Shown here: positions 13,047 through 40,790 of the stretch, piece after piece
Position numbering within the stretch: the stretch's first letter is position 1
How the letters are laid out: each line of letters starts with the position of its first letter
NCBI GenBank assembly: GCA_016218805.1
Contig: JACRCW010000017.1
Coordinates: 53-64,052 of the forward strand
Direction of reading: 5' to 3'
Origin: Deltaproteobacteria bacterium
GTDB lineage: Bacteria; Myxococcota; JACRCW01
DNA length: 64,000 bases
The notes under the pieces: model-generated
Databases searched by the model: none
Seen by the model: only the letters and a program-made list of their open reading frames with translations
Told to the model about the DNA's origin: nothing
Made by a program: the position numbers and the translations under genes

Positions 13047-13862
13047 TCACTCCAGCCCGTGCGCCACGGCGGACCCCGCCGTCCACCCTCCCAGTCCCGC
13101 CAGCAACGGCCCCACCGCGGCGCCGCCCACCAGACCCAGCCCCACGGCCACCGCGGACATGAAGGCCAGGTTGAGCGAAAACCACCGCGCATAGGTCCAC
13201 GCGCCGCCGTTGGGCATCATCACCGCCAGGTACGCCCACGCTGCCACCGACGCCCACGGCAGGAACCCCGACAGGAACGCGAGCAGCACCCACGCAGGCG
13301 CGGTGACCACCACCGTCACCAGCGTGGCGGCGACGGGGTGGATCACGCGCGCCCGGGTCACACCGGCCGCGCGCCACCCCAGCACGCCGCCGACCACCAC
13401 GCCCACACCCACCAGGCCGGTGGCCACCAGCGCGGTGCCCAGTCCCAGCACCCAGCCCACCATGCCGATGACGACGCCGCCAAAGCAGGTGCCCGGCCAG
13501 CTTCCCTGCACCACCGGGTCACCACGGGACAGCGGGTAGACCGCGGCCATCACCGCCGCGGCCGTGCAACAGGTGCCCGCGGCAGGCACCCAGCACAGGC
13601 CACCGGGGAGCCCGCCCAGCGCCGCGCCAACCACACGCCACGGGCCGCCAGCCTCCGCTGGCTCTGGCTCCCGCGCGACCTCCAGCGGTTCCGTGTGGGC
13701 CGGCGCGGGAGCGGGGGCGGGCTGCTCCTCGTCCCGGGGGCGCGTTGGCGGCGGCGCCTGGGGCGTCAGCGGCGGCAACGGGGCAGCGGCGTCCGGCGGC
13801 GCCCAGTCACCGGGCGCGGGCAGCGGAGCCTGCGCCAGGACGCACAGCAGGAGCACCTGCAT
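13047..13862 (-). CDS. Hypothetical polytopic membrane protein
   Basis: There is a signal-like N-terminus (MQVLLLCVLAQAPLPAP), a Pro/Ala-rich linker and several Gly-rich transmembrane segments. The start overlaps the stop of the upstream DUF2330 gene by ATGA. Confidence 0.5.
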   Translation of the reverse strand: MQVLLLCVLAQAPLPAPGDWAPPDAAAPLPPLTPQAPPPTRPRDEEQPAPAPAPAHTEPLEVAREPEPAEAGGPWRVVGAALGGLPGGLCWVPAAGTCCTAAAVMAAVYPLSRGDPVVQGSWPGTCFGGVVIGMVGWVLGLGTALVATGLVGVGVVVGGVLGWRAAGVTRARVIHPVAATLVTVVVTAPAWVLLAFLSGFLPWASVAAWAYLAVMMPNGGAWTYARWFSLNLAFMSAVAVGLGLVGGAAVGPLLAGLGGWTAGSAVAHGLE

Positions 13863-15634
13863 CAGCAACCGCGCCGCCGCCGCCGGCCGACTACGACGAG
13901 CGCCAGCAGCGCAGCCGCCAGGGGGAAGTCCGCGCGCGGTTGGGCACACGTGCAGCGGCCGCGCGCCTGCACCGGGCGCTGGGAGTCGTTCCAACGCGCC
14001 AGGCGGGCGTCCACGGCGGCTTCGTTCTCCGTGAGCGGGACAATGTCGCCCTGCTGCGGGATGTCATCCACCCGCAGCGCCCACGGCATGGCGTCATCAA
14101 ACGCGGGCCAGCCGCCGTCCACGCGGGTCTCCACCCCACGCCCATCCGGCAGGTCCACGCGCTGGGTGCCGTCACAGTGTGCCCGGACCGTGGCCGTGCG
14201 GAGGTTGGCCACGGCGGGGAGATCGGCGCGTTCATGGAACTCCGGGTCCACCGTCATCTCGTCAGGCGAAATGGTGGTGAACAACCGGGTCAGGTAGGGG
14301 CGCGTGGCCACCAGCGCGGCGGCGCGGTCCGCCGGGCGCTGCACGCGGTCATCAAAGTCATGCCAGAACGCCACGTGGTCCCAGGCGGCGGGCACGGGGA
14401 ACGCGCCGGGGTTGCCCCAGTAGTCCGACTCGGCGATGCCGGTGGGCGGGGGCAGGTAGTCCAGCAGCAGCCCGCGCAGCAGCGGGTGGTAGAACGTACA
14501 ACTGCCATCCGGGGTCACCCCGGTCACGTTGGGCGGCGGGATGGCCGTCCCCTGGCACGACAACAGGCTGGACCGTCCCAGGTCCGCCAGGACCCCCGCC
14601 GGCGTGGAGCCCACCTGCGTGAGCGTGAGGGACCACCACGCGAAGCTGGCGCGTTGCACCACGCTGGAGGCCCCCGCGTACTCCGTGACAAAGCCCTGCC
14701 CGCCCGCGTTGGGGTCATCCACCGCGCGGCTGACCACGTCCCGGTAGTTGGCGCCGGCGTTGAGCCAGTCCACCCGCACCGGGTTCACCTCCACGTGGCG
14801 GTAGGTCCGCGGCACCACGCGGGCGTTGCCCAGGAAGAACACGCGCACGCCCATGTCCATGGCGGCCGCCACGGCGGTGAGGCGTAGGGGGACGCAGGGG
14901 ACGCCGTACTCGTAGCGCAGGACAATGGGGTGGATTTCATCCACGGCGGCGGTGCTCACCAGCTTGATGGCGGCAAACAGCGAGTTCTCCTCCGTGTACT
15001 GCCGGATGAGCGGCTCCGTGGACGGGGGCACCAGGTACTGGTTGTCCCGCAGCCACTGCAGCACCTCTTCCGCGCGGCTGGACTGCAGCACGGTGATGTC
15101 AAACGCGCCCACGCTGTCCCGCCACACCACGGTGGAGGAGGCGCCGGCGTCGGGCGGGAAGGCCGTGAGGTCCTCGCTCAGGGCGCACCCGGCGGGCGCC
15201 AGGGCCACCAGCAGCCACGGGGCAAGGGCCAACGCCACCAGCGGCACCGCCAGCAGCGCGGGGGACAGCAGCAGGTAGGGAATCATGTCCTCGGCGCAGG
15301 TGTCTCCCAGCCGGCGCTGCGCCACGTAGGCGGGCGCGGAGGCGCGGAGCAGTTCGCGGAACAGCAGGTCTGAACCCACGCGGAACTCCGGCACGGCGGG
15401 GATGGGCACCACCCACGCAAACCGCTGCGGCTCACCCTGGTACTGGATCTGGATATGCGCCTCCATGGCGGGGCCGTCCTGGACAAACAGGATGTTCTCA
15501 CCGGTCTGGTCCACCGGCATGGGCGGGCCGGCGGTGGCGCCGTCACAGAAGGTGCCGCCGCAGGCGTGCGCGGTGGCGGGTGCAACCACGTGGACCAGCG
15601 CGGCGAAAGCCGCCAGCGCGACAGGTGATTTCAT
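13862..15634 (-). CDS. DUF2330-like secreted protein with a MYXO-CTERM-type C-terminal sorting tail
   Basis: A signal peptide is followed by the ACGGTFCDG motif. The C-terminus is GRCTCAQP...LAAALLALVVVGRRRRRGC, i.e. Cys-containing, then a transmembrane segment, then an Arg cluster. Confidence 0.65.
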   Translation of the reverse strand: MKSPVALAAFAALVHVVAPATAHACGGTFCDGATAGPPMPVDQTGENILFVQDGPAMEAHIQIQYQGEPQRFAWVVPIPAVPEFRVGSDLLFRELLRASAPAYVAQRRLGDTCAEDMIPYLLLSPALLAVPLVALALAPWLLVALAPAGCALSEDLTAFPPDAGASSTVVWRDSVGAFDITVLQSSRAEEVLQWLRDNQYLVPPSTEPLIRQYTEENSLFAAIKLVSTAAVDEIHPIVLRYEYGVPCVPLRLTAVAAAMDMGVRVFFLGNARVVPRTYRHVEVNPVRVDWLNAGANYRDVVSRAVDDPNAGGQGFVTEYAGASSVVQRASFAWWSLTLTQVGSTPAGVLADLGRSSLLSCQGTAIPPPNVTGVTPDGSCTFYHPLLRGLLLDYLPPPTGIAESDYWGNPGAFPVPAAWDHVAFWHDFDDRVQRPADRAAALVATRPYLTRLFTTISPDEMTVDPEFHERADLPAVANLRTATVRAHCDGTQRVDLPDGRGVETRVDGGWPAFDDAMPWALRVDDIPQQGDIVPLTENEAAVDARLARWNDSQRPVQARGRCTCAQPRADFPLAAALLALVVVGRRRRRGC

Positions 15635-15751
15635 GAGCGCCCCCTGAAGTCTGCCCAACATAACGTCCGCGCGCGGCGGTGCACGGCCTTTGTGGGGTGC
15701 AGCGTTCATGAACACCGCCGGCGGGGCTCCCTGCGTCCGGGCGCCTCCGCC

Positions 15752-17085: not shown

Positions 17086-17862
17086 TCATGGCGGTCCGCC
17101 GTCCGCACCTTCGCACCTGTAGACGTTGGACTGGCCCTGGACGGTGAGTCCGGCGTCCGTCACTTGAGGGTACACCGAATACGGCAAACGGTTCGGAACC
17201 CGGGTGCGTGACGCTGCTGCTTCCTCCTTGGCCTTCTCCAACCTAAGAGCCCAACGGCGGCAACAACGGTCCCCGAGCAAGTCCACTTGCAAGTCCCTCC
17301 CCGCTGCCGACCCACCTTCCATGTATGCCCATGCGTTGGGCCAGATCACCTGGAAATCGGCGAGATACTTCCCGGTGTCGTCTACGACCAACAAGCCTCC
17401 GTTCGCCGACGCGTTTCCCATGACGGACTGGAACGCGACGGGGAGCCCCACGGAAACTCCACACACAGGGTCGCTCGCACGAGCCTCGAAGCGCAGGGCG
17501 AATACCACACGGGGTTGCTCCCCCCTGGTGAACTCCATGATCGACGCCCAAGTTTGGGCGGGCGCAATGAGGATCTTGGATGCCAGGGCACCCATCCATA
17601 GGTCCTCCGGCTGCACTTCCAACATCTCTCCAGTGCCATTCCAATACGGCATTCCATCTTCGCGCCACGACGCTGGACAACTCTCGGCTTCAGGGCACGC
17701 ACCCACAAAGGCCAGACGACCAACGCCCACCGCGTTGGCCCGATCAAGATCCTCAGCGTCATGAAACACGGTTGAGTCCGGAGGCCGTATCGTCTCCGTG
17801 CAACTCAGCGCGGCGCAGAGGCACGCGGCTACCACGGGTTGTCGGCGGAGAATCCAACGCAT
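17086..17862 (-). CDS. Hypothetical secreted/lipoprotein
   Basis: The signal and lipobox MRWILRRQPVVAACLCAALSC are present. The start was chosen downstream of the repeat array, which the longer ORF reads through. Confidence 0.5.
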   Translation of the reverse strand: MRWILRRQPVVAACLCAALSCTETIRPPDSTVFHDAEDLDRANAVGVGRLAFVGACPEAESCPASWREDGMPYWNGTGEMLEVQPEDLWMGALASKILIAPAQTWASIMEFTRGEQPRVVFALRFEARASDPVCGVSVGLPVAFQSVMGNASANGGLLVVDDTGKYLADFQVIWPNAWAYMEGGSAAGRDLQVDLLGDRCCRRWALRLEKAKEEAAASRTRVPNRLPYSVYPQVTDAGLTVQGQSNVYRCEGADGGPP

Positions 17863-17974
17863 TTGAAACGCCCTCCCGCCCTTTCTGCGGCGAGCATGAT
17901 GACGAGGAATTGCCTCTGTCAACAGCCTGCGGTGCAAGTAGGAGCCGTTTGAACCCGTCGAACGCCACCCCATC

Positions 17975-19449: not shown

Positions 19450-22400
19450 TCAGGTGCCGCCGTCCGCCGGGCAGGTGCCACCGTCCGCGCGCTGGCAGAA
19501 GCGCGCCCGCACCTGGAGGGTCTCCACGGCCACCGCCCCGCCGTCCGCGTCCACCGCCCGCACCTGCACGGCCACCGCGGGAGCGCCGCCCGGCAGGCGG
19601 ACCGTGTGCCGTGCGGGTTGGGGCACCGTGCCAGACGCCAGCGGCTGCCAACTGCCCGCGGCGGGTCCCACGGACTGCCACGCGTGGAGGCTGCCGGCAG
19701 GCACCCCCGCGTCCGAGGACTGGTCAACGTCCACCGCGACTTCGCGCAGGTGGGCGGTGGACAGGTGGGCCTCCGACAGGGGGGCCCCCAACGTCAGGCT
19801 CCCCGCCGGGTGGCGGGGGCTTTCCAGGATCCACGTGCCTTCCGAGTTGCCGCTGGGACCTGACGCGGACAGCGCCAACACGCCGCCGGCCACGGGGTCA
19901 TAGGCCGCGCCTACCACGCCCTCCAGCGCCAGGGGCCGCGGCGCCAGCGGCAGGGCGCGGAAGTGCAACGCGGCGCCGTCCCAGGTGACCTCCAGGGACG
20001 GCACCGCCGTTCCGCCGCGCGGGTCCATCGCGGACGTGCTGTCACCGCCCACCACCACCAGCGCCTGCCGCACCGGGTCATACGCCAGGGTGTGATTGGC
20101 ACGCGCCGGCGGGGCGTCCACCACGGGAGTGGCGTTCACCCAGCGGTGCGTGCCCGGGTCCAACAGCCACGCGTCCGCCAGCGGGCCGGTGTCGCCCAGG
20201 CCGCCGTACAGCACCACGGCGCGGGCCTCCGCAAAGTACGCCATGGCGGCGGCGCGTCGCGGTGGCGGCCGTGTGGGCGAATCACCCGACACGTCACTCC
20301 ACAGCGCCAGCGCAGCGTTGCGGTTGAAAGTGAGCGTGGTGTCCAGGAGTGTGCCGCTGCCGTTGGCGCCGCCAAACAGGAAGGTGGTGGACGGAAAGCC
20401 GGTGGCGTCCACCAGGGCCAGCGCACCGTCCGCGCGTCCCGGGTTGGGCCCCAGCAGGCAGGCGCCCGCCACATTCAGCCCGTTGGCGTCCAGCGTGGCG
20501 TACCCGCACAGCATCAACGTGCTGGTGGGTCCCACCAGCACGGCTTCCACGCTGTCAGTCTCCGGCGGCACGGCCCCCATGGTCAGGCCCAACGGGTAGT
20601 TGTTGAGCAGGTTCAACATGGAGGACGACGTGGTCCACGCGCCGGCGCTGCCGCGCCAGAGCTGCACGGCGCCGCTGGAGTCCTGCACCACGGCAACGGG
20701 CGCGGACCTCCCCATGACCATCAACACGCGGCCGCCTGCGGGCGCGCGCAGCGGCGCGGGGGTCACCTCCGCCCAGCCGGGTGCCTCGCTCCAGGCCCAC
20801 AGGGTGCGGCGCGTGCAGGTTTCACCCGGGAGGGCCTCACAGCCGGCCAGCAGCAGCCGCCCCACCAGTGCGCCGTCCGCGCGCCAGCCGCGGTGCGGGT
20901 CCAGGAACCCGGCCGCCGCGGGCTGTGGTCCCGGCGTCACGGACGTGGCCACGGTGGACCAGGTGCCCGCCCGCAGCCGGGAGAGCGTGTCCGCCGTGGC
21001 GCTGCCGCCGTAGAGCAGCAGGTCCCCGTTGGACGGGTCCACCACCATCAGGTGCCCGCTGCGGGCCGGGGCCGCGCCCGCCGTCCCCACCGCCGCGAAA
21101 CTGACGCCGTCAAAACGCCACAGGTCGGCCAGCGGCGTGCCGGCCGCGGAGGTCCCGCCGTGGACCAGCACCGTGCCGGTGGCCGGCTCCCAGGCGCCGG
21201 CCGCCCCACGCCGCGCGGACAGGGTGGCCCCCGGCACGGCGCGCCACGCGTACCCGTTCCACTCCCACGTGCTGGTGCTGAAGGTGGCCGGCGGTTGGGC
21301 GCAATCCCGCACGCCGCCCACCAGCACCACGGCGCCCCGGCCGGGGTCCGCCACCAGGGTCGCCTGGGCGCGGCCTTCGGGCGCGGCTTCCAGGGCAAAG
21401 GCCGCACCGTCCCAGCGCCACACGTACGGCAGCGCGTCATTCCCCCCGCCGCAGCCGCCATAGAACATCACGCCACCACCCACCGGGTCGTACGCGGCCG
21501 CCACGCCGCGCAGGCCGACGGGGAGGTCACCGCGCAGCTCGGGGAAGCGCCAGCTGGAACCGTCATACTCCGCCACCTGGGCGCTGCTGCCCGCCCACGC
21601 CAGCAGCACCAGCCGGTCACGTGCGGGGTCATACGCGCCGGCCATGTCCGCGGACGCCAGCGGTGTCCCGTCCGGCACTTCCACCACACGCCACTGCGTG
21701 CCACCGGACATCACCAGCGCCCCGTCCGCCGCGCCCGCCAGCCGCGGGTGCCCCGCCCCGGGCGTCACGCCCCAGGACCCGCCCGTGTCCACGGGCAGCG
21801 GGTGCGGCGGCCAGGCCCCGCTCTGCCAGACCACCGGCGCGGCACCCCGCGTCGGGACCACGGTCTCCACGTCCAGCTCGGTGTGCTGCAGGGGCACCGG
21901 CGTGGACTCGTTGCCGGCCTCATCCACGGCGGTGACCAGCACGCCGCGCCCTTCCATGCCGGTCCACACGGGGCTGCTGGACTGCCAGGCCCCCGCCCGG
22001 TCCTCCCACCCCACCTGCGACAGCAACCGCGGGGCGGAACCCAGCGGGCCCGCGTCGGCTTCGGCGGTCACCGGCCAGTCCCAGAAGCGCAGCAGGCGCA
22101 CGTGCGCCCCCGCCGGGAACCCAAAGTCCTGCGGCCCCAGGTCCACCCGGGCGGCGCCCAGCCCGGTGCTGCCCACCACGCTGAACACCGCGCTGCCGGT
22201 GACCTCGCTGTAGCGCTCCCCGGGGACCGTCACCGGCCCTCCACCCGGCTCCGGACCGCCGCCGCCTGTGGGGCCCAGGCCGCCCGTGGTGGTGCCGGCG
22301 TCCGCGTCAGCGGGCAGCCCGGGCAGGGTGACCGCGCTGACTGGCGTGTAGTGCTTGGCGGTGGGCTGCCGCAGCAGCGCCACGTTGTGCTGCCGCACCT

Positions 22401-24798
22401 GCAGCTGCGGCGCGCGGGCGCGGACGTGCAGCACCGGGGCGGCCAGGCCACCGTCACGGTCATTGGGGTTGCCCGCCAGGTCGGTCAGCTCCGGGTACAG
22501 CGCGTAGTCCCCGGTGGGCGCACTCCCGGCGACGGCGCGGAACATCACCAGGTAGGTGCTTTCGCCCGCCGACGGGTCCGCCACAAAACGGATGGCGCCG
22601 CCGTCCCTGCCGCGTGCCACCAGGGCGGGCCCCGCGTCCCCGGCGGCAAACACCGGCTCATTGGCCACCAGCACCGCCAGCACCTCCGTGTCCGGCCGTG
22701 CCGCCGTCACGTCCTGCACGGGGTTGTCCGGCGCGGGCAGGTACAGCAGTTCCGCCACGGGCAGCGTGGGTGCCGCCAGGTCATACGGGACGGTGGCCAC
22801 CGCCGTGGTGCGGTTTCCGGCGGGGTCGCGCAGGGTGACCTCCAGGGACACAAAGCCCTGCGGCAGGTCAGCCCGGATGCCGGTGCTGCAGGACCAGTCC
22901 GCACCGGTGGCCGTGCAGGTCATGGCGTCACCTTCAAAGCGCGCCTCCGCCACGTTGGCCGCGTCCAGGTTGCCACCCGGGGCGTCCAACGCCTGGAAGG
23001 TGGCGGTGAGCTGACCGCCGGCCCGTTCCGCCGGGCCAATCCGCGCCGGGGCCACCTGCAGCCCGCTGATGGCCGGGGCCTGCCCGTCCACCACAAAGTC
23101 CGGCAGCTGGGTCAGCGCCGTGACGTTTCCCGCGCGGTCCGCGAACAGCATGGTATCCGCCGCCAGCGTCCACACGCCGTCCAGCGCGCCCTCCGGCACC
23201 TCAAACGTCCACTGCCCAAAGCTGCCTGACACCGACGCCACCACGGGGTGCCGCACGCCCGCGGGGTCCAACAACTGCGGCTGCACCGCGGCGAACTCAA
23301 CCGGTTCGTCCGCGTAGGCGGACAGGAACACCGTCATGCCGGGCCGCACCAGCGCCGGCTGCAGGTCCGGCACCACGCCCGGCGCCCGCTTGTCCACGAC
23401 GATGTTGCGGAACGGGACGAACTCGCCGGTGCGGCCCGACTCGTCCATGAGGTCCACCCGCACGGGTGCTTCGCCATCCGGAATGTCCGCGGTCACCGTC
23501 ACCTCACCGGTGCAGTCCGTGCGGGTGGCGTCCGTGCACGTGGGTCCTCCGTCCGGGGAGAACGGCGTGTCCCGCAGGCGCATGGCGGGGGGCGCGGCCA
23601 GAGGTTTGTTGGCGGTGACGCGCAGGCGCAGCGTGACGCCGGCGTTCACCAGGTGGCTCCCGCCGTCCGCGGTGATGCCCAGCGTGCCGCCGTCAGCCAG
23701 CACGCGGCCCAGGCTGGCGGTCTCCAACTGCACCGCGTCCGGGTCCCGCCGCACCGTGCCCACGTCCACGGACACGCGGTTGTCCGCCAGGTCCGCAAAG
23801 GCCACGCGCGCCGTGTAGGTGGTTCCCAGCGCCAGGGTCCCGGCCGCCGCCCGCGAGCGGAACAGGAAGGTGGACGTGGCCAGCCCCACCGGCCCTTCCA
23901 CGAGGTCAAACGCCCACGCCGGGTCCTCCACCAGGGTCACGGACGCGGTGGGCAGCGCGCGCTCGTCCACGGTGAACTCCACCGTGACAAACGCGGTGTC
24001 CGCCGCCAGTGACGGGGTCACGTGCGCTTCCGGTGACCCGTCCGGTTCCAGGGCCAGCGCGGGCGGCTGCAGGTCCAGCACCACGTCGGTGGACACGGTG
24101 CGGGACGCGTAGCCTTCGTCATCCACAAACCGGGCGAACACCCGCCGCCGGCAGACGTTGGGGGCCGCACACGGGGTGGACAGGCCCACGTCCAGGTTCC
24201 ATGGGATGGCTTGGTCCGCCGTGCCGCTCAGTTCCACCCGCCGCGTGCGGGGCACCGCCGCGTCCCCGTCATCCGGGAAGGTGGACACGTTGCTGAGGCG
24301 GACGTACCGGCCCACCGGTTGCCTGACGAGCAGGGTGACATCCGCGGAGCCCACCACCCCTTCGGACGACACCACGCCAATGGCCCCGTCGTCGGGATCG
24401 GGTGACGGGCGCAGGCGGACGCGCACGTCCACCGGCTCGTCGCGGACGCCGGGTTTGAGGGAAAACGGCGCCGAAATCCCGTAGTAGACGACAGGTGCGG
24501 AGAAGTCCTCGGCTCCACGGAACTCCACGCTGACCACCAGGCCATCACCGTTGTCCACGTTCTTGAAGTCCAGCTGCATGCCGGGGCCGTAGCGCACCGG
24601 CCCCACCGTGCGGACGTCGCTGTCGCGCGTGACGCGGCCCACAATCCACAGCACCTCGTCGGGGGAAGGGCGTTGGGACTCCCAGGTGAAGTGCACCCGG
24701 AACGTGCCCCCGCGCGACGTGCCCGGCCACTGCCAGCCGGAGCACGCCACCAGGGCGGACGCGGCGCACATCAGGACGACGCGTGTCTTCATGGCCAC
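19450..24798 (-). CDS. Giant (1782 aa) secreted lipoprotein with beta-propeller (Kelch/galactose-oxidase-like) and Ig-like repeat regions
   Basis: There is a lipoprotein signal (LVACSG), repeated Gly/Trp-rich blade-like segments, and a start 4 bp after the stop of the upstream PEGA gene. Confidence 0.75.
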   Translation of the reverse strand: MAMKTRVVLMCAASALVACSGWQWPGTSRGGTFRVHFTWESQRPSPDEVLWIVGRVTRDSDVRTVGPVRYGPGMQLDFKNVDNGDGLVVSVEFRGAEDFSAPVVYYGISAPFSLKPGVRDEPVDVRVRLRPSPDPDDGAIGVVSSEGVVGSADVTLLVRQPVGRYVRLSNVSTFPDDGDAAVPRTRRVELSGTADQAIPWNLDVGLSTPCAAPNVCRRRVFARFVDDEGYASRTVSTDVVLDLQPPALALEPDGSPEAHVTPSLAADTAFVTVEFTVDERALPTASVTLVEDPAWAFDLVEGPVGLATSTFLFRSRAAAGTLALGTTYTARVAFADLADNRVSVDVGTVRRDPDAVQLETASLGRVLADGGTLGITADGGSHLVNAGVTLRLRVTANKPLAAPPAMRLRDTPFSPDGGPTCTDATRTDCTGEVTVTADIPDGEAPVRVDLMDESGRTGEFVPFRNIVVDKRAPGVVPDLQPALVRPGMTVFLSAYADEPVEFAAVQPQLLDPAGVRHPVVASVSGSFGQWTFEVPEGALDGVWTLAADTMLFADRAGNVTALTQLPDFVVDGQAPAISGLQVAPARIGPAERAGGQLTATFQALDAPGGNLDAANVAEARFEGDAMTCTATGADWSCSTGIRADLPQGFVSLEVTLRDPAGNRTTAVATVPYDLAAPTLPVAELLYLPAPDNPVQDVTAARPDTEVLAVLVANEPVFAAGDAGPALVARGRDGGAIRFVADPSAGESTYLVMFRAVAGSAPTGDYALYPELTDLAGNPNDRDGGLAAPVLHVRARAPQLQVRQHNVALLRQPTAKHYTPVSAVTLPGLPADADAGTTTGGLGPTGGGGPEPGGGPVTVPGERYSEVTGSAVFSVVGSTGLGAARVDLGPQDFGFPAGAHVRLLRFWDWPVTAEADAGPLGSAPRLLSQVGWEDRAGAWQSSSPVWTGMEGRGVLVTAVDEAGNESTPVPLQHTELDVETVVPTRGAAPVVWQSGAWPPHPLPVDTGGSWGVTPGAGHPRLAGAADGALVMSGGTQWRVVEVPDGTPLASADMAGAYDPARDRLVLLAWAGSSAQVAEYDGSSWRFPELRGDLPVGLRGVAAAYDPVGGGVMFYGGCGGGNDALPYVWRWDGAAFALEAAPEGRAQATLVADPGRGAVVLVGGVRDCAQPPATFSTSTWEWNGYAWRAVPGATLSARRGAAGAWEPATGTVLVHGGTSAAGTPLADLWRFDGVSFAAVGTAGAAPARSGHLMVVDPSNGDLLLYGGSATADTLSRLRAGTWSTVATSVTPGPQPAAAGFLDPHRGWRADGALVGRLLLAGCEALPGETCTRRTLWAWSEAPGWAEVTPAPLRAPAGGRVLMVMGRSAPVAVVQDSSGAVQLWRGSAGAWTTSSSMLNLLNNYPLGLTMGAVPPETDSVEAVLVGPTSTLMLCGYATLDANGLNVAGACLLGPNPGRADGALALVDATGFPSTTFLFGGANGSGTLLDTTLTFNRNAALALWSDVSGDSPTRPPPRRAAAMAYFAEARAVVLYGGLGDTGPLADAWLLDPGTHRWVNATPVVDAPPARANHTLAYDPVRQALVVVGGDSTSAMDPRGGTAVPSLEVTWDGAALHFRALPLAPRPLALEGVVGAAYDPVAGGVLALSASGPSGNSEGTWILESPRHPAGSLTLGAPLSEAHLSTAHLREVAVDVDQSSDAGVPAGSLHAWQSVGPAAGSWQPLASGTVPQPARHTVRLPGGAPAVAVQVRAVDADGGAVAVETLQVRARFCQRADGGTCPADGGT

Positions 24799-24804
24799 CT
24801 CAAC

Positions 24805-26250
24805 TCAGTCGATTGTCGCCGCGCCGCTGCCGGGCGGCGGCGGCGCCTGCGTCAGACGGTAGACCGCGAACGCGCCCACCGCACCCGCCACCACCAGCCC
24901 GACGAGCGCGGACACCACCACCGCGCCGGCCACACCCACCGACGCCCACACCTGCCAGCGCTGGTACCAGCGCAGCGGCACCGGGATGAGCTCCACCCAC
25001 AGGGCCGTTGTTTCGGCCGGGTCCACGTAGATGTCTGACGTGTAGTCCTGGAAACCGCGGCGCTGCAGCAGCAGCGTGTGCATCCCCGCCGGCACCCCCG
25101 CCAGCGGCTTCATGGGCAGCGTGCCGCGCGCTTCGCCGTCCAGCGTGAGCGCTGCGCCCTCCTGCGCGCTGCTGACCACAAGCGTGCCCGGCAGCTGCCC
25201 CTCCAGGCCCAGCAGCCGCCGCCCGGCGTGCCGCACCGCCCGGATGAGCTGGTCCTCCGGGCCGGAGAACGCCTCCGTGACGCGGTTCTCCACGCGCGTC
25301 CCCGCCACAGAAATCAGCCGCAGCGTCACAATGTGGCTCCCCGCCAGCCGGCCAATGTTCCCCGCCACCAGCTTCTCCACGCCCAGCGCGCCGCCAATCT
25401 CCGCCAGGCACGACGCGTCGTCGCACCCCAGCTGCAGCTTGTCCGCCTGCAACTGCAACAGCGCCTGGATGTCATCCCGGCTGATGACGGACGCTCCCGG
25501 CGCGCGCTTGAGCTCCGCGGACAACACCTGCGTGAGGCTCTGCGCCACGTCCACGCCCAGCCCCGCGGGCACCAGGTCCAGGACCGCCAAGGACACCGCC
25601 TTGCCGCCCGTGTCCCAGCGCTGCACGGCCCGCTCCTCGGCCCCGCCCAGCATGCGCGGCACCACGCGGCCCAGCTCGGTGGCCAGCTCGCGCGGGCCAC
25701 GCACGGTGATGGACTCACGCGCCTCCACCGTGCCGTCCGCGGCGCGCAGCAGTGACAGCGACGCGGTGAGCTGCGTCCCCACCCGCCCCACCGACCCGTT
25801 GAGCACCTTCTCCACCCCCGCGCCCGACGCCAGCTGCGCCGTGCAACTGGGACCGCCCGCGCAGCCCATCAGTTCGCGCGCGCGCTCTGCGCCCATCAGC
25901 TGCCGCACGTCCTCCAACGTGATCACGGAGTAGCGGCCCGCCCCGTGGGCCGCCTGCGCCACCAGCTGCGTGGCCTGCACACCCAGGTCCGCGGATACCC
26001 CCTGCGCGCGGAAATCCGTCACCAGCAGGCGCGGCAGCACCCGCGGCGCCGCAACAGACGGCGCGGGGGCGGGTGCCGGCGGCAGGGACGGCGCGGCGGG
26101 CTCCACGGCGGCCGCGGCAGGGGCGGCGGGAACGGGCGCGGCACGGTCCGGCCGCCGGCGCGCAGGCGCGGCGCTGGCGTCCACCGCGCACAGCCCCATG
26201 ACGGCGACCAGCAACGCGCCCCGGGCGGAGGGTTTGGAACACCTATCCAT
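24805..26250 (-). CDS. PEGA-domain membrane protein with a duplicated Cys-containing module
   Basis: The protein has a signal peptide, two paralogous modules (LMGCAGGPSCTAQLASGAGVEKV and LQLGCDDASCLAEIGGALGVEKL), a PEGA-like RRGFQDYTSDIYV segment and a C-terminal transmembrane segment. Confidence 0.65.
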   Translation of the reverse strand: MDRCSKPSARGALLVAVMGLCAVDASAAPARRRPDRAAPVPAAPAAAAVEPAAPSLPPAPAPAPSVAAPRVLPRLLVTDFRAQGVSADLGVQATQLVAQAAHGAGRYSVITLEDVRQLMGAERARELMGCAGGPSCTAQLASGAGVEKVLNGSVGRVGTQLTASLSLLRAADGTVEARESITVRGPRELATELGRVVPRMLGGAEERAVQRWDTGGKAVSLAVLDLVPAGLGVDVAQSLTQVLSAELKRAPGASVISRDDIQALLQLQADKLQLGCDDASCLAEIGGALGVEKLVAGNIGRLAGSHIVTLRLISVAGTRVENRVTEAFSGPEDQLIRAVRHAGRRLLGLEGQLPGTLVVSSAQEGAALTLDGEARGTLPMKPLAGVPAGMHTLLLQRRGFQDYTSDIYVDPAETTALWVELIPVPLRWYQRWQVWASVGVAGAVVVSALVGLVVAGAVGAFAVYRLTQAPPPPGSGAATID

Positions 26251-26318
26251 GCACCGCTCCATCTACCACGGGCCCCAAGCTTCCGGCGTGGCCGGGGCCT
26301 GCGGTACGTTGCCGGCGC

Positions 26319-29101: not shown

Positions 29102-30001
29102 CTAGGCCCGGGGGTGGTGCTCCCGGTAGATGGCCTGCAGGCGGGCGCGGTTCACGTGCGTGTAGATCTCCGTCGTGGAGAGGTCCGCGTGGCCCAGCAT
29201 GGCCTGCACCGCGCGCAGGTCCGCCCCGTTCTCCACCAGGTGGGTGGCAAAGCTGTGCCGCAGCTTGTGCGGTGACAGGTGTTTGCGGATGCCCGCCGCC
29301 AGCGCGTGCCGCTTGACGATCTTCCAGATGCCCTGCCGCGTCAGCACCTTCCCTGACGGGTGCGGGAACAGCACGTCCGACGGGCGACTGCGCAGCAACT
29401 CCGGCCGCGGGCCGGCCAGGTAGCTCTCCAGCGTGGTGCGCGCGCGCGCGCCCAGCGGCACCACGCGCTCCTTGCGCCCCTTGCCACGCGCCAGCAGGAA
29501 CCCGCGCTGCAGGTCCACGTCGTCCAGGCGCAGTCCCACCACTTCGCTCACGCGCAGGCCGGTGGCGTACATCAGCTCCAGCATGGCGGTGTCCCGCCAC
29601 GCGCGCGGGTCCCTGGTCCCCGGCGCGGCCAGCAGTGCGTCCACTTCGCGCGTGTCCAGGAACTCCGGCAGCTTCTTCACCATCCGCGGCCGGTCCACGT
29701 CGGCGGCGGGGTTTTGCTGCAAGTACCGCTCGCGCACCAGGAACTTGAACAGCATGCGCACCGCGGACAGCGTCCGGGCCTGGGAGCGGACGTTCAGCCC
29801 CGCCCGCCCCAGTGACGCCATGAACCCCGCCACGTGCGCGCCCGTCACCTGCGCCGCATCCGTGACGCCGTCCTGGCGCAGGAACGCGTCCAGCTTCTGC
29901 AGGTCCCCCGCGTACGCGGACGCCGTCAGCGGGCTGAGGTTCCGCTCCACCCGGATGTGCTCCAGGAAACTGTCCGCGGCGTCCGCCAGCAGCAGTGACA
30001 C
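29102..30001 (-). CDS. xerD: Tyrosine recombinase XerC/XerD family
   Basis: The protein is about 299 aa. The N-terminus LLADAADSFLEHIRVERNLSPLTASAY is typical of Xer recombinases, and the C-terminal catalytic R..H..Y residues are present. Confidence 0.8.
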   Translation of the reverse strand: MSLLLADAADSFLEHIRVERNLSPLTASAYAGDLQKLDAFLRQDGVTDAAQVTGAHVAGFMASLGRAGLNVRSQARTLSAVRMLFKFLVRERYLQQNPAADVDRPRMVKKLPEFLDTREVDALLAAPGTRDPRAWRDTAMLELMYATGLRVSEVVGLRLDDVDLQRGFLLARGKGRKERVVPLGARARTTLESYLAGPRPELLRSRPSDVLFPHPSGKVLTRQGIWKIVKRHALAAGIRKHLSPHKLRHSFATHLVENGADLRAVQAMLGHADLSTTEIYTHVNRARLQAIYREHHPRA

Positions 30002-30016: not shown

Positions 30017-32018
30017 TCAGCGGGCCAGCGCCTGCCGTTCTTCCACAAAGTTGCGCACGCCCTGCACAATCCCGTCCGCCAGCCGGTCCTGGTACTTGGG
30101 GCTGCCCAGGCGCTGCTCCTCCATCTTGTTGGACACAAACGAACTCTCCAGCAGGATGGCCGGCATCTTGGCCCCGATGAGCACGTAGAACAGCGCGTGC
30201 TTCACGCCCAGGTCCTTCACCTGCCCGTAGTTCTCGCGCAGTTCGCCCACCACGTTGGCCTGCACCAGCTTGGAGAGGCGCACGCTGTCATCCACGTTGG
30301 ACTTCATGGCCAGGTCCGCCAGGATGAACTGCAGGTCGCTGATGGAGCGCTCGCTGGTCTTGTTTTCGCGTGCGGCCAGGCGGATGGCGTAGTTGTCGTC
30401 GGTAATGTTCAGGTAGTACGTCTCCACCCCGTAGATGCGCCGGTTGGGATTGCTGTTGCAGTGGATGGAGATGAACAGGTCCGCGTGCGCCCGGTTGGCA
30501 ATCAGCGTGCGCTCCTCCAGCGGGATGAACACGTCCTTGTCCCGCGTGAGGATGACCTCCATCTTCAGGTCCTTGCGCAGGCGCTCAGCCACCTTCCGGG
30601 CAATCCGCAGCGTCACGTCCTTCTCCCGCACGCCGGAGGGGCCAATGGCGCCGGGGTCCTCGCCGCCGTGGCCCGCGTCAATGACCACGCGGCGCACCTT
30701 GAGGCCCGTCTGCGCGGAGATGGACAGGCTCGGGCGTTCGTCGAACTCCTTGGCCAGCGTCTTCACGTCATCCAGCGTGGGCGCCGCGTCACCCTTGCCC
30801 GCGTCCGGGACCCCGGGGTGCGCCACCAGCTCCAGGGTCACCGGCGGGGCGGGCGTGTCGTCGGCGCGCGCGGATTCGGTGGGGTCCGCGGGCGGCGGGG
30901 GCGGCGGGGGCTCCACCCCCGGCGCCGCGCTGGCCAGCAGTTGCGGCCGCTCCGCGGGGGTGCCCAGCGTGATGAGGACGCGGCGGTTGCCGGCATCATA
31001 CGCGGCGGCGCCGGGCACACCCGGCTTGAGTTCAAAGACCACGCGGACGGTGTTCGCGTCGAACTGCGCCGCCCGCGCCGCCAGCACCCGGGCATCCTTG
31101 TGCGCCTTGAGCACCTTGTGCGCCGCCCCGGCCAGCGCCGGGCGGATGTCCACGTAGAAGCGCGCCGGCACGTTCTTGCCCGCGGGCGCCACACCGGTGG
31201 CCAGCGTGACGGCGGCGGCAACGTCCAGCGCCACCTCGGTGCGGGGCCCCTTGGCCGCCAGGCGCACCGCGCGGATGGGCTGCGGCTCGTCGGGGGCCTC
31301 GGCGGCGTCGGACTCGGCGGGCTTGTCCGCCGCCGGCGCGTCGGCCGCGCGGGTCCCTGCGTCACGCGCACCCTCCGCAAACTTCTCCAGGATGTCGTGC
31401 AGGCGTGCCCGGGACGCGGTGTCCTCTTCCATCGCGGCGGGCTTTTCGGACTTGTCCACGTGCGTGCGCGGCGCGGCCGGCTCCGCCCGGGCCACGCGCT
31501 CCGGCGCCTTCTCCCTGCGGGGCGCGGGTTTCTCGGCCGGCGGTTCAGGGAGGCGCGCCAGCAGCTCCGTCACCGCGCGCGCCTGGTCCCCCTTGGGATG
31601 GTCCTTCCGGGCGCGCTGCAGCAGCGCGCGCGCGCCCTCCAGGTCCCCCTTGCGTGCGGCCAGCATGCGCGCGGCGCGCAGCAGCGCGTCGTCCGCCAGG
31701 GACGAGCGCGGGAACTGCTCCGCCATGCTCACATTGAGCTTGATGGCCTGCTCCAGGTCCGCCGCCAGGCCGGACGCCTGGGACAGGTCCTCCGCCACCG
31801 TGGCGGCGAAGTAGGCGCACTCCTCGGCCTTGTCCGACTTCTGCCTGGCGGCCGCCGTGAGCTTCTGGATGAGCTTCTCGTAGGGGACGCGTTGCTGCTT
31901 GCGCGCTTTGTCGGCGCGCAGCTCGGCGTACGCCTTCTTGGATTCGGCAAACACGCCCTCACCCGCCGCGGGCGTGGCGGCCAGGACAACCAGTGAAAGG
32001 ACGAGCGCGTGGACCATG
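30017..32018 (-). CDS. N-acetylmuramoyl-L-alanine amidase (AmiC-like) with N-terminal TPR-like and Pro-rich regions
   Basis: The C-terminal Amidase_3 motifs VIDAGHGGEDPGA...SIHCNS are present. A signal peptide begins at MVHALVLSLVVLAA. Confidence 0.8.
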
Positions 32019-32177
32019 GCGTGTGTGTGCGTGGCTCCGGCCGGCGGCCTGTTGCTCCGCCATGCTCCCGTTGACTCCGGCAGAAGGCAAGAAAACGGCC
32101 AATGCAAGGCGCCAGGGAAGGTGGTGATCAGGCCGTGACGCGGTGCGCCAGCGCGTCTACCCGAGCCCCGCAGGGGC

Positions 32178-32302
32178 GTGGCACCCCGTGTCCGTCCGGA
32201 GTGTCTCACTTAGTGAGACACCTCGGAGCCAAGCGACAGTGCGCGCCCGCCGGTAGCGCCGTCAGCCGGACGCCCCTTTCCAAGCCCTACCCGACCCATG
32301 CC
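32178..32302 (+). repeat. Copy A of the ~120-bp palindrome-bearing repeated element
   Basis: It begins with GTGGCACCCC. The palindrome GTGTCTCACTTAGTGAGACAC is at 32201-32221. Confidence 0.7.
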
Positions 32303-38160: not shown

Positions 38161-38590
38161 ATGGGCAGATCGAAACACCGTGAGGAGAAGCGCACGGAGG
38201 CAGGCCGGGCAGCGGCGCTGCTCACGCCTGCCCAGCGCCTCCGCCAAGCCGTGGAACTTTCAGACCTGTGCCTGGAACTGCGCGCGGCGGCACGCAAGGC
38301 TGGCGACCATGACGATGAAGACGGCTCTGATGGACGACACGCCGCTGCGGGTCCTGGGGCCTGAGGACCTCCTCGTGCTGAAGGTCCGGGCCGGTGGAGC
38401 ACAGGATCGCGTCGACGCCCGTGCGCTGATGGCGCTCCCGCTCGACGAGGATCGGGTGCAGGCCATGGCCACCCGCGCGCCTGACGAAGAAGCTGGCGGC
38501 CTGGCGGCGCTCAACGTCTCCGCGCTGAAGGTCCGGGCCTTCAGGCGAGCGGTGACGCCGCCACCGCCACCCGCGCTGTTGTGGGCCTAA
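38161..38590 (+). pseudogene. Apparent frameshifted small gene. The N-terminal part (38161-38364) is in one frame and the C-terminal part (about 38312-38590) is in the frame shifted by -2/+1.
   Basis: Each half looks protein-like only in its own frame (EAGRAAALLTPAQRLRQAVELSDLCLELRAAARKAG, then TALMDDTPLRVLGPEDLLVLKVRAGGAQDRVDARALMAL). The two overlap by about 50 nt. Confidence 0.3.
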
Positions 38591-39981
38591 TCCACCGGCC
38601 ACTGCACCGGTTGGGGGACGGCGTCGTTGGGGCCCGCTGGCCGGCCAAGCGCGCCGGACTGGTTGCCCCCCCAGCAATACACACCCGCGTCCGCCACCCG
38701 CGCGCACGAAAAGCCACCGCCAGCCACGACGTCCACCACGTTGGTGAGGGTGGGCACTTCCGCGGGGGCCGGAAGGGTGGCGGGACCCTCTTGCCCGCAC
38801 TGCTTCTGGCCGTTGTCCCCCCAGCACACGACGCGCCCAGTGGTTGTGACCACGCACGCGTGCGAGCCACCCGCAGCCACCCGCCGAGCAGCCACGCCAG
38901 GAATCAGGAGGGCGCCGGCGGGTGGCCCCGCATCTTCGCGGGCAAGCTGCTTTCGGTCGTTGGCTCCCCAGCAGTACACCTGAGTCCCCTTGAGCACGCA
39001 GGTGAAGTTGGCACCGGCAGCAATCGCGTCGGCGCCACCCGCGGTCGGTACGTCCAGTGGCGTGTCAAACTGCCCGGTGTCGGTCTCGTTCACCTGGTGG
39101 TTGCCGTTGGCACCCCAGCATTCAACGCTTCCCTGCGGCCGCCGCAGGCACGCATGCGAGGCGCCGTTCACAACGTCCTGGTACCCCGTGCCGGCCACGT
39201 GATGGGGGAGGGGAAAGGCTCCAACCGGTATGACCGCGCCAGCTCCCCAACAGTACACGCCGCTGGCCTGCGCCAGGACACAGCTTGCCAGGCCACCGCC
39301 ACCCAACGCTGTCACGCCGGCCAGGGGCTGCAGACTTGGCTGGACGACCACGGTGGCCACGGTGGTGTCCACTCCGCACTGGCCAACCTGGTTGCCGCCC
39401 CAACACAGCACGCCGCCGTCGGCGGCTGTGGCGCACGTGTGCTGGCCCGCCGCACTTTGCAGCGTCCCGCCCTGCAGTCCGGGAACTTCAGTGGGCCGCG
39501 GCTCAACCCCAGAGGCTGCGTTGGGTCCAACCTGATTCAGCTGGTTGGCTCCCCAGCAATAGAGCTTGCCGTCACCGGTGCGCGCACACGTCTGACCGGC
39601 ACCCGCGGTCATGGCCACCACGCACCGGCCTTCATGGCAGGCGTGCACAGAGGTGGCCCCCGCAGATGAGGACGGCGCGGCGGCGCGGCTGGATGAGACG
39701 CCCTGATGAGAGCCAGAGGACGCCACCGACGCTGACAACGCCGCCGCGGACGATGACGTGGCTACCGGTCCGCTGGCGGACGCGGGCTGGGAAGAGCTGC
39801 CGGGCGCGGAAGCGCCTGAGGAACTGCTGCTGCTGGCCGCATTCACGCATTGGCTGGCCACACAGGACTCCTGAGGCCGGCAATCCGCGTTGCTGACACA
39901 GGCGTAGCGGTCCCAGGGATTGGCGAGGCAGCCCGCAAGCGCCGCGCAGACGACAACCAGCAGCGACACGGCGCGCATCAT
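38587..39981 (-). CDS. RCC1/BLIP-II repeat lipoprotein
   Basis: There is a lipoprotein signal (VVVCAALAGC), a Ser-rich linker and repeated C.VKGD/YCWG.N..GQ.G blades. Confidence 0.8.
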   Translation of the reverse strand: MMRAVSLLVVVCAALAGCLANPWDRYACVSNADCRPQESCVASQCVNAASSSSSSGASAPGSSSQPASASGPVATSSSAAALSASVASSGSHQGVSSSRAAAPSSSAGATSVHACHEGRCVVAMTAGAGQTCARTGDGKLYCWGANQLNQVGPNAASGVEPRPTEVPGLQGGTLQSAAGQHTCATAADGGVLCWGGNQVGQCGVDTTVATVVVQPSLQPLAGVTALGGGGLASCVLAQASGVYCWGAGAVIPVGAFPLPHHVAGTGYQDVVNGASHACLRRPQGSVECWGANGNHQVNETDTGQFDTPLDVPTAGGADAIAAGANFTCVLKGTQVYCWGANDRKQLAREDAGPPAGALLIPGVAARRVAAGGSHACVVTTTGRVVCWGDNGQKQCGQEGPATLPAPAEVPTLTNVVDVVAGGGFSCARVADAGVYCWGGNQSGALGRPAGPNDAVPQPVQWPVD

Positions 39982-40790
39982 GGCAGCCACCATGACGCCG
40001 CCAGCGCGGCCGCGGCCCCCGCCAACGCCAGGACACCCAGCACCCACAGCGCGGCGGCACTGACCCCCGCCGCGTCACCCAGCACGGCCACACCCAGCGG
40101 CACGCCGTGACGGCGCTGGGTTGGCGTGGACCAGTCCCCGTTGCTGAGGTCCACGGCCACCAAACCCGCCGCCACAACGCTTGCGCCCGCCGCCAGCAAC
40201 CAGGTCCCCACCCCCACCGCGCCCAGGCCCGCGGCACTCAGACGAAGCACCATGGGAGCGGCCGAGCTGGTCCGGACTTCAGCGGGTGCAGCCTTGACGG
40301 GGAGGGCGGGCGCTTGCTGCCGTTCATCGCGCATGAGTTCCCGGGCCACGGCACCCATGTCCTCCAGGACGGCGCTGGCGTCCCGGTCCGGAAAGCGCCG
40401 CACTGACCGCCGGAGGATCCTGGCATCCCGGGAGCGCACCCGGGACAGACTCAGGAAATACCCGCTCCCAACGACGCCCAGGCTCCCCAGCACGATCTGA
40501 TCGCGGTCCAGCGCGTTGGCAATCTCCACGGCGCAACTGACGGACTCACACCCGGCGGCCTGACGGACGGTCTCCTGGGCCATGGTGGTCTCCAGCTCGC
40601 GGAAGCTCACCAGCTGGTAGGCGGGCTGTCGTCCCGCCTCCGCCACCAGCGCGGCAGTGACCTGCTCACACAGGTCCCTGGTGGCGCCGTCGCGCGGTTC
40701 AATGGGGAGCACCAGGACAGTGGTGGGCCGCCACGGCGTTGGAGCGGCTTGAATCACCCCCACTGCCAGCAAAGCGACGACCCATAACAT
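39978..40790 (-). CDS. Membrane-anchored protein with the same Cys-containing module as the PEGA protein (paralogous)
   Basis: The module ELETTMAQETVRQAAGCESVSCAVEIANALDRDQIVLGSLGVVGSGYFLSL matches the 24805-26250 modules. A signal peptide and C-terminal transmembrane helices are present. The stop overlaps the RCC1 start by ATGA. Confidence 0.5.
   Translation of the reverse strand: MLWVVALLAVGVIQAAPTPWRPTTVLVLPIEPRDGATRDLCEQVTAALVAEAGRQPAYQLVSFRELETTMAQETVRQAAGCESVSCAVEIANALDRDQIVLGSLGVVGSGYFLSLSRVRSRDARILRRSVRRFPDRDASAVLEDMGAVARELMRDERQQAPALPVKAAPAEVRTSSAAPMVLRLSAAGLGAVGVGTWLLAAGASVVAAGLVAVDLSNGDWSTPTQRRHGVPLGVAVLGDAAGVSAAALWVLGVLALAGAAAALAASWWLP

Follow-up and report, generated by a model that had tools for sequence, protein, structure and literature searches.

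A recurrent two-gene cassette in Myxococcota that pairs a predicted membrane-anchored protein containing PelC/TolB-N/LpoB-like modules with a modular lipoprotein

In Vibrio, the gene for the FlgO/TolB-N-like envelope protein FlgO lies beside a lipoprotein gene, flgP, in a flagellar context, and the FlgP lipoprotein is small. In the case of TolB, the module and a propeller form one soluble polypeptide, and the lipoprotein of that system, Pal, is small and OmpA-like. PelC, a single-domain outer-membrane lipoprotein of the Pel exopolysaccharide exporter, is encoded in the pel operon and forms a 12-mer ring, whereas the PqiC/PA3214, LptE and CsgG class comprises outer-membrane lipoproteins paired with barrels or MCE needles; we know of none in this class that is paired with a large modular lipoprotein. 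Outer-membrane lipoproteins of this fold group are known to engage particular partners in the envelope, and often do so as rings (PMC13631591). Here we analyze a stretch of 64,000 nucleotides (hereafter the window; ~70% G+C), whose proteins are identical to entries of a metagenome-assembled 'Deltaproteobacteria bacterium' (Myxococcota; locus tags HY904_*), and describe two cassettes in which a gene for a protein with one or two modules resembling this fold lies immediately upstream of a lipoprotein gene.

Both cassettes are on the minus strand. In cassette 1, the gene for a protein containing a PEGA domain (the PEGA protein) is followed by that for a Kelch lipoprotein; in cassette 2, which lies 14 kb from cassette 1, the gene for a smaller protein, P2, is followed by that for an RCC1 lipoprotein. 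A preliminary description of this DNA had suggested a recurring two-gene unit, and that suggestion is borne out by its presence at two spots in the window and by the retention of both pairings in other genomes. The best explanation, in which we place middling confidence, is that both pairs in the window belong to a family of self-contained two-gene operons spread across the Myxococcota. The features of the two cassettes, located with a local gene map made from codon-position G+C analysis and Pfam scans, are as follows.

24805..26250, minus strand: PEGA protein, 481 aa, in which a signal peptide precedes a Pro/Ala-rich linker, modules A and B, the PEGA domain and a predicted C-terminal transmembrane helix.
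25642..26043, minus strand: module A, residues 74-207 of the 485-aa open reading frame (ORF), Cys pair G-C-x4-S-C (hidden Markov model (HMM), BLASTP and fold match).
25207..25602, minus strand: module B, residues 221-352, Cys pair G-C-x3-S-C followed by the motif 'AEIGGALGV' (HMM, BLASTP and fold match).
24988..25188, minus strand: PEGA β-sandwich (PF08308), with β-strands at residues 355-419 in the model.
24853..24957, minus strand: C-terminal hydrophobic helix, predicted membrane anchor (AlphaFold2 helix 432-466).
24793..24804, minus strand: intergenic spacer of 12 nt with the Shine-Dalgarno-like GAGGTGG, read from the sequence.
19450..24792, minus strand: Kelch lipoprotein, 1780 aa, with lipobox LVA-C17, an N-terminal β-rich region, immunoglobulin (Ig)-like (Big_13-type) repeats and Kelch propeller repeats.
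24073..24720, minus strand: N-terminal region of the Kelch lipoprotein, residues ~25-240, 'GTFxVxFxW ... VLYYGxS', the best-conserved part among partners.
39978..40790, minus strand: P2, 270 aa (NCBI P0110, with agreeing coordinates), in which a signal peptide precedes a single module, a Pro/Ala linker and two hydrophobic helices; its end reads 'ASWWLP'.
40335..40724, minus strand: P2 module, residues 23-152, Cys pair G-C-x3-S-C (BLASTP, HMM, alignment and model).
39987..40211, minus strand: helical hairpin of P2, predicted membrane anchor (AlphaFold2 helices 194-216 and 234-268).
39978..39981, minus strand: ATGA overlap of the P2 stop and the RCC1 start, read from the sequence.
38587..39981, minus strand: RCC1 lipoprotein, 464 aa, with lipobox LAG-C18, a 4-Cys knot, a Ser-rich linker and an RCC1 β-propeller.
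39847-39900, minus strand: 4-Cys knot of the RCC1 lipoprotein, residues 28-45, CVSNADCRPQESCVASQC, from the translation.
~39649-39840, minus strand: Ser-rich linker of the RCC1 lipoprotein, from the translation.

The homology between the three copies of the module, two in the PEGA protein (modules A and B) and one in P2, spans ~130 residues and extends beyond the Cys motif. In BLASTP comparisons, modules A and B were 29% identical over 114 residues (E = 1e-12), and P2 aligned with module B at E = 4e-10 and with module A at E = 3e-8; the module similarity noted in the preliminary description is thus significant. An HMM of the three copies, compared with the six-frame translation of the window, matched only those three, the next match having an E value of 0.25. 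The motif originally given for the module fits the copies in part: G-C-x3-S-C is found in module B and P2 (spacing C-x4-C) but not in module A, which has a C-x5-C spacing, and at the position of 'LGVEK..G' in modules A and B, P2 has 'ALDRDQIVLG'. The Cys pairs themselves are invariant across alignments of 43 PEGA-family proteins and 14-16 single-module proteins, save for one Cys column of PEGA module B that falls under the 90% list, and the pair in each module probably forms a disulfide.

To place the module among known folds we used structural models. The AlphaFold2 model of the PEGA protein (made with 43 homologues; mean predicted local distance difference test score (pLDDT) of 83, with the modules above 90) contains, in order, a signal peptide, a disordered Pro/Ala stretch, two α/β modules, the PEGA β-sandwich and one long C-terminal hydrophobic helix. 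The helix is preceded by a W-rich juxtamembrane motif in which W428, W432 and W435 are nearly invariant among the 43 homologues. Structural comparison of this model indicated that the fold of the module resembles those of the solved PelC, TolB-N and LpoB, and the model of P2 (pLDDT of 76 overall, with the module above 90 and the anchor region at 43-78) has the same structural neighbors. As modeled, then, the module belongs at the fold level with the α/β group that comprises PelC, TolB-N, LpoB and CsgG. Profile searches gave sub-threshold matches or none: in the PEGA protein, Pfam TolB_N (PF04052) scored 13.1 bits against a cut-off of 22.4 and DUF3280 (PF11684) scored 20.2 bits against a cut-off of 30.1, neither family matched P2 in a Pfam scan, and a PDB sequence-profile search with the PEGA family returned nothing significant. 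Precomputed PF11684 matches are present on some homologues of the PEGA protein, and FlgO (PF17680) is recorded on the homologue P0015. The PEGA domain itself (PF08308) cleared its cut-off of 20.8 bits with a score of 36.5 (E = 4.7e-9; residues 359-425 of ORF 24805-26262), and P2 has no PEGA domain in the Pfam scan. The module proteins have a type I signal peptide and are without a canonical lipobox. We infer that they are non-lipidated, Sec-exported proteins with a C-terminal hydrophobic anchor and periplasmic modules; in the case of P2, the predicted anchor region aligns with two hydrophobic segments of its single-module relatives.

The proteins encoded downstream both fit the lipobox pattern [LVI][ASTVI][GAS]-C, a sequence pattern only, with MKTRVVLMCAASALVA-C and MMRAVSLLVVVCAALAG-C; the lipoboxes read ALVA-C in the Kelch protein and LAG-C in the RCC1 protein. 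The Kelch lipoprotein matched Pfam Kelch_KLHDC2 (85 bits), Kelch_3 (52 bits) and Kelch_4 (50.8 bits) as well as Big_13, and the RCC1 lipoprotein matched RCC1_2 (124 bits) and WD40_RLD (161.6 bits). The partners had been described as very large lipoproteins, which is accurate for the 1780-aa Kelch protein but not for the RCC1 protein, which at 464 aa is no giant. Likewise, both module genes are immediately upstream of their partners, as had been stated, but of the two junctions, both described as translationally coupled, only that of P2/RCC1 is an overlap (ATGA); at the other, which is closely spaced, the PEGA stop codon TGA (24807-24805) is followed by the 12-nt spacer 'gttgaGGTGGcc' and by the ATG that starts at 24792.

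Our reading of the gene starts in the window agrees with the NCBI calls for the PEGA protein (100% identical to P0001, 'PEGA domain-containing protein') and differs from the NCBI call for the RCC1 gene (P0111), which comprises only the last 341 aa from an internal Met. The JGI call for the orthologous gene in locus L172 (2958-4682) is also 341 aa long. Such calls lose the whole stretch from the lipoprotein signal through the 4-Cys knot to the Ser-rich linker, whereas the full ORFs overlap the upstream stop codon, and in-frame third-position G+C is consistent throughout the N-terminal extension. The longer, 464-aa reading is supported because orthologous loci share the architecture of lipobox, knot, Ser-rich linker and RCC1 domain. 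(A practical by-product of this comparison is the recognition that gene callers systematically truncate the lipoprotein N termini of RCC1 partners.) The knot weakly resembles the TIGR04201 Cys-rich repeat (Myxo_Cys_RPT), the Dumpy DPY module and DUF7107; all matches to these three families were below the cut-offs, the best being 23.4 bits (cut-off 25) for a relative, and the knot in the window scored 18.6 and 17.9 bits against cut-offs of 24.6 and 27.

Conservation of the pairing in related genomes is what sets these genes apart from chance neighbors. The PEGA protein has more than 100 relatives of like architecture, which are named only 'PEGA domain-containing protein' or 'TolB-like protein'. 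For two of them, L001 (52% identity) and L002 (48%), the product of the next gene has Kelch and Big_13 domains and is 1576 or 1790 aa long, the two genes overlapping by 4 nt in one case, and the surrounding genes are unrelated to those of the window. A scan of one genome per GTDB species yielded 80 loci, all from Myxococcota-type metagenome-assembled genomes (MAGs), with several per genome. When the ORFs downstream of PEGA-family genes were compared by BLASTP with the Kelch lipoprotein of the window, 11 loci proved to have an orthologue as the next gene, between unrelated flanks (L001, L002, L005, L007, L008, L010, L011, L012, L018, L026 and L033), and a metagenome scan added a twelfth PEGA and Kelch locus, L148. 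Together with the P2-type and RCC1 pairs in L171 and L172/L173 described below, these loci establish that the pairing is kept in related genomes, and it persists across 25-50% sequence identity with no other synteny. In the window, the genes flanking both pairs are divergent or convergent and have housekeeping functions (a major facilitator superfamily transporter, xerC/D-like, amidase, recN-like, tsaB-like, sspB-like and dnaE), and therefore each pair is a stand-alone two-gene unit. Kinase and integrase genes are also among the neighbors.

Among the Kelch lipoproteins, conservation is highest in the N-terminal ~350 aa. A profile of the N-terminal 420 aa matched all Kelch-type partners as well as family F5 (L020, L022 and L024), whose C terminus differs from that of the Kelch class, with E values from 5.6e-19 to 4.5e-7. 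We regard the N-terminal region as a candidate docking region; a PDB sequence-profile search with it found no relative. In a neighbor-joining tree the upstream proteins group largely by partner type, with few exceptions, which points to the inheritance of whole cassettes with occasional exchange of the partner.

The P2 and RCC1 pair is also conserved. An indexed word-based homologue search with P2 recovered only P2 itself, because too few words are shared with its relatives, whereas HMMER comparison of P2 with 1.84 billion cluster representatives gave 2461 matches at E <= 1e-3. These include a full-length family of 250-310 aa whose members are 34-42% identical to P2 and end in '...ASWV[LI]P'. 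In each of three distinct contexts (L171, L172/L173 and L174) the start of a downstream lipoprotein gene overlaps the stop of the P2-type gene, the overlaps in L171, L172 and L174 being like the ATGA in the window, and both complete partners contain RCC1. In particular, the partner in L171 has a lipobox, the knot CSGNQDCPPGIDCLDHVC, a Ser-rich linker and RCC1; that in L172/L173, of 574 aa in total, has a lipobox, a knot, a very long Ser-rich linker and RCC1; and that in L174 has a lipobox and knot up to the end of the contig. A search with the RCC1 lipoprotein, by comparison, was uninformative as to orthology, its 2624 matches being generic RCC1 paralogues of 30-38% identity from several phyla. 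At least one additional P2-type paralogue, P0235 (HY904_13160), is found on a different contig of the MAG that contains the window, and a second MAG (AB2A00_*) encodes three, P0236, P0237 and P0250.

To estimate how often module genes are followed by lipoprotein genes, we scored loci as positive if the start of a lipoprotein ORF, identified with a strict lipobox rule (a regular expression), lay within -40 to +150 nt of the stop of the module gene. In the genome survey this was the case at 21 of 73 assessable module loci, against ~1.6 expected from how densely these ORFs occur overall in those loci (0.117 per kb per strand), and in a metagenome scan with a single-module alignment at 23 of 53 assessable loci, against ~0.5 expected; because the loci are related to one another, these ~13-fold and ~45-fold enrichments are descriptive and not exact probabilities. 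Of the 28 closest assessable loci, ~18 are positive once unusual lipoboxes, judged by eye, are counted, and the gaps at positive loci are mostly -4, -1 or 0-30 nt. When six other single-module proteins were looked up, all six had a lipoprotein encoded downstream, at -4 to +84 nt.

The C-terminal domains of these lipoproteins, here called payloads, are diverse. Two of the six additional partners have FGE-sulfatase, and the others have LamG, Cys-rich repeats or a YWTD-like domain; those from the metagenome scan include ten Big_2 repeats, a β-helix with PPC, and CarboxypepD_reg; and other partners in the genome survey contain FG-GAP, CarboxypepD_reg or Thiol_cytolysin domains, or no known domain. 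The β-propeller proposed in the preliminary description as the recurrent partner is thus represented by the Kelch and RCC1 proteins but not by the partners that contain Big_2, FG-GAP, LamG, FGE-sulfatase or β-helix domains, and therefore the propeller is not a defining part of the cassette. What stays constant is the module protein together with a lipoprotein that is conserved in its N-terminal part. For example, of the 28 lipoprotein ORFs that the metagenome scan placed downstream of module genes (loci too short to assess included), 11 have the knot C-x5-C-x5-C-x4-C immediately behind the lipobox. The knot is also present in the RCC1 lipoprotein of the window, in L087 and L089, and in the partners in L171, L172 and L174, and the C termini of these knot-bearing proteins vary from RCC1 and LamG to domains whose type is unknown.

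One of the single-module cassettes has distinctive neighbors: at L088 (2135-6967), the single-module protein P0102 and a 728-aa lipoprotein with an FGE-sulfatase/CLec-type end are followed by genes for HRDC, bAvd and a reverse-transcriptase fragment. This gene set is typical of a diversity-generating retroelement (DGR), and no template repeat/variable repeat (TR/VR) pair was found before the contig ends. The window has no such gene set.

Many relatives (P0094-P0109, and the module proteins in L036, L044, L045 and L051) have a C-terminal unit in which two hydrophobic helices rich in Gly and Ala, with a charged helical loop between them, lead into a short β-strand ending in G-[RSG]-F. This unit resembles the C-terminal signal of outer-membrane proteins, but follows helices and not a barrel. 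In L059, L068, L076, L077, L078, L081 and L083, the product of the single-module gene ends in '...G-x-F', and just downstream there is no lipoprotein gene but a convergent gene for a product of ~500 aa that starts '...PTVAILPP...'; this may be another TolB-N-like protein, and the neighborhood would then be a different conserved one.

The likeliest reading of these findings, to which we give about even odds, is that the module protein is a membrane-anchored periplasmic docking partner of its cognate lipoprotein. Docking onto envelope partners is known for other proteins of the PelC/TolB-N/LpoB fold. According to this proposal, the first gene would specify a Sec-exported, non-lipidated protein with one or two modules of this fold in the periplasm, each with a Cys pair and stapled by a disulfide. 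Its tether, most plausibly to the inner membrane, would be a hydrophobic helix at the C terminus in the PEGA class and a helical hairpin in the P2 class. The second gene would be transcribed together with the first, usually with translational coupling, and would specify a lipoprotein composed of a lipid anchor, a family-specific N-terminal adaptor and a large exchangeable binding domain. The adaptor would be a ~200-aa β-rich region in the Kelch class, and the 4-Cys knot with its low-complexity linker in the RCC1 class; the binding domain would consist of Kelch and Ig-like repeats, or of RCC1. By binding the adaptor of its own lipoprotein, the module protein would position, retain or organize that lipoprotein in the envelope. 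Two points suggest that the lipoproteins are receptors or adhesins: every payload is a binding or repeat domain, and bAvd, reverse-transcriptase and HRDC genes adjoin one cassette.

Several observations weigh against this proposal. The N-terminal adaptors of the 790-aa type and of family F4 have no similarity to the Kelch-class region that was detectable in a profile search, and therefore a single common docking element is not demonstrated. In L003 and L014 the downstream gene encodes a secreted protein without being a lipoprotein gene. Among module genes at greater distance, about half have no lipoprotein partner, including many distant Anaeromyxobacter genes with one module and PEGA, and nine single-module loci whose products end in GxF have a convergent ~500-aa neighbor instead of a lipoprotein. 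In addition, the anchor helices of P2 are modeled at low confidence, and the surveys drew on interrelated loci and on a lipobox rule of the regular-expression kind.

The alternative that survives best, although we consider it unlikely, is that the module proteins form rings (as do PelC, a 12-mer, CsgG, a 9-mer, TraT, a 10-mer, and PqiC-like proteins, 8-mers) that serve as a dedicated conduit or platform, export the cognate lipoprotein to the cell surface or display it there, and do not simply tether it. The closest structural neighbors of the modules are indeed ring-forming envelope proteins (PMC13631591), payloads such as ten Big_2 repeats, FG-GAP, β-helix, LamG, Kelch and RCC1 are typical of surface proteins and adhesins, and the DGR-type genes found beside one cassette usually diversify surface-exposed binding proteins. 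Many single-module relatives, moreover, end in a β-strand and '...G-x-F' that is like the outer-membrane-protein signal; P2 and the PEGA protein, however, lack a G-x-F end, and the known ring formers are outer-membrane lipoproteins, whereas the module proteins appear non-lipidated and have predicted α-helical anchors that fit the inner membrane. A bolder idea, which we consider doubtful, is that PelC/CsgG/TraT-like rings of module proteins and their cognate lipoproteins constitute an unrecognized Myxococcota-wide 'plug-and-play' display system in which each unit, sufficient by itself, anchors or exports one modular surface receptor or adhesin. Recombination would exchange the payload, and a DGR would hypermutate it in some of the cassettes. 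If true, the system would be a lineage-specific answer to the problem of positioning large lipoproteins at or across the outer membrane.

It is rather unlikely that the two genes are merely co-expressed in one pathway and that their products make no contact, the module protein binding, for example, peptidoglycan or some other structure of the envelope and the lipoprotein acting on its own. Operon conservation alone is no proof of contact, the N-terminal regions of the partner families are heterogeneous, and module genes also exist in the absence of a lipoprotein partner. Yet start/stop overlaps, which favor 1:1 synthesis, are frequent, clades of the upstream protein track partner types, and the pairing has outlasted divergence to 25-50% identity with no other synteny.

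A further alternative is a conflict or recognition system, with a logic like that of the myxobacterial SitA/SitI or TraA/TraB systems. The lipoprotein would then act as a polymorphic effector or receptor, variable at its C terminus, and the membrane protein would provide immunity or regulation or serve as a co-receptor. The lipoproteins do have a modular build in which the N terminus is constant and C termini are swapped, there are several paralogues per genome, one partner has a Thiol_cytolysin domain, two have FGE-sulfatase/CLec-type ends (one of them beside bAvd and reverse-transcriptase genes), and the knot is weakly like the TIGR04201 repeat of TraA-type proteins. Nevertheless, this alternative is very unlikely: almost every payload is a binding or repeat domain and no toxin, the partner gene precedes the lipoprotein gene and does not follow it, neither a MYXO-CTERM nor an OmpA-type partner is present, each of the Cys-repeat matches falls short of its cut-off, and the L088 contig yielded no TR/VR repeat. 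Finally, the notion that adjacency is coincidental, lipoproteins and secreted repeat proteins being abundant in Myxococcota and the RCC1 and Kelch families large (2624 matches with the RCC1 query alone), is effectively refuted by the conservation data, with 21 against 1.6 and 23 against 0.5 positive loci observed and expected, orthologous pairs persisting between different flanks, and the only clear lipoproteins in true gene frames of the window being the two partners and possibly one more.

The possible third lipoprotein, MRWILRRQPVVAACLCAALS-C, is encoded at 17086-17922 on the minus strand, and has no Pfam match and no module gene upstream. Third-position G+C is 0.72-0.88 for the P2 and RCC1 genes and 0.91-0.92 for the PEGA and Kelch genes, and the former values are also below those of most of the window; the P2 and RCC1 genes may have been acquired more recently or be expressed at a lower level. 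Between the cassettes, also on the minus strand, 30017-32209 encodes a 730-aa protein with TPR, AMIN and Amidase_3 domains, with a gene for a XerC/D-type tyrosine recombinase (29102-30001) directly downstream, and this pair of genes has an ordinary housekeeping look. A DUF2330 protein is encoded within a few kb of the PEGA and Kelch cassette both in the window (13862-15751, minus strand) and in L001 (8291-9838), and is the sole hint of wider synteny.

Myxococcota encode very many large lipoproteins with adhesin-like domains, whose sorting, anchoring and display are poorly understood. A conserved, compact and abundant two-gene unit offers a testable handle on lipoprotein positioning in a phylum with surface-mediated social behavior. 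We judge its importance to be moderate, as a widespread and uncharacterized envelope gene pair of an under-studied phylum, in which a fold known mainly from outer-membrane lipoproteins (PelC, LpoB and CsgG) appears to be used in a non-lipidated, helix-anchored form.

How, then, does the cassette compare with the systems described to date? Unlike PelC, the module protein is predicted to be non-lipidated and to have a C-terminal helical anchor, and it has a conserved Cys pair and a lipoprotein as its partner; moreover, Pfam scans of the neighbors found no pel genes near the cassettes. The same scans found no tolQ, tolR, tolA or pal, and, in contrast to TolB, the propeller here is part of the lipoprotein and is replaceable. 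A 'split TolB', with module and propeller on two genes, was considered as a general explanation and rejected, as the payloads are often not propellers. Relative to LpoB-PBP1B the roles are reversed, the fold being in the membrane-anchored protein and the disordered Ser-rich linker in the lipoprotein, and there is no penicillin-binding protein (PBP) or UB2H domain. The FlgO/FlgP arrangement differs in that no flagellar genes are present here and in that the payloads are very different. A polymorphic toxin pair of the SitA/SitI kind was rejected because the Kelch and RCC1 payloads lack a toxin domain and the partner gene is upstream; a link to SitA6 through the label 'DUF2380' on PF11684 was dropped, as the DUF2380 of SitA6 is pfam09533, which is unrelated to PF11684. 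Full-text literature searches on PEGA and myxobacteria, on COG5616/DUF3280, and on RCC1 or Kelch lipoproteins in Myxococcus returned no description of the cassette, which thus appears to be undescribed. Given that the fold is known, that the TolB_N and DUF3280 cut-offs are missed, that the Tol-Pal and Pel contexts are missing, that there is no SitA-type pair and that the cassette was not found in the literature, we see in it a docking fold that is already known, here used in a new architecture and joined to a new and conserved class of partner.

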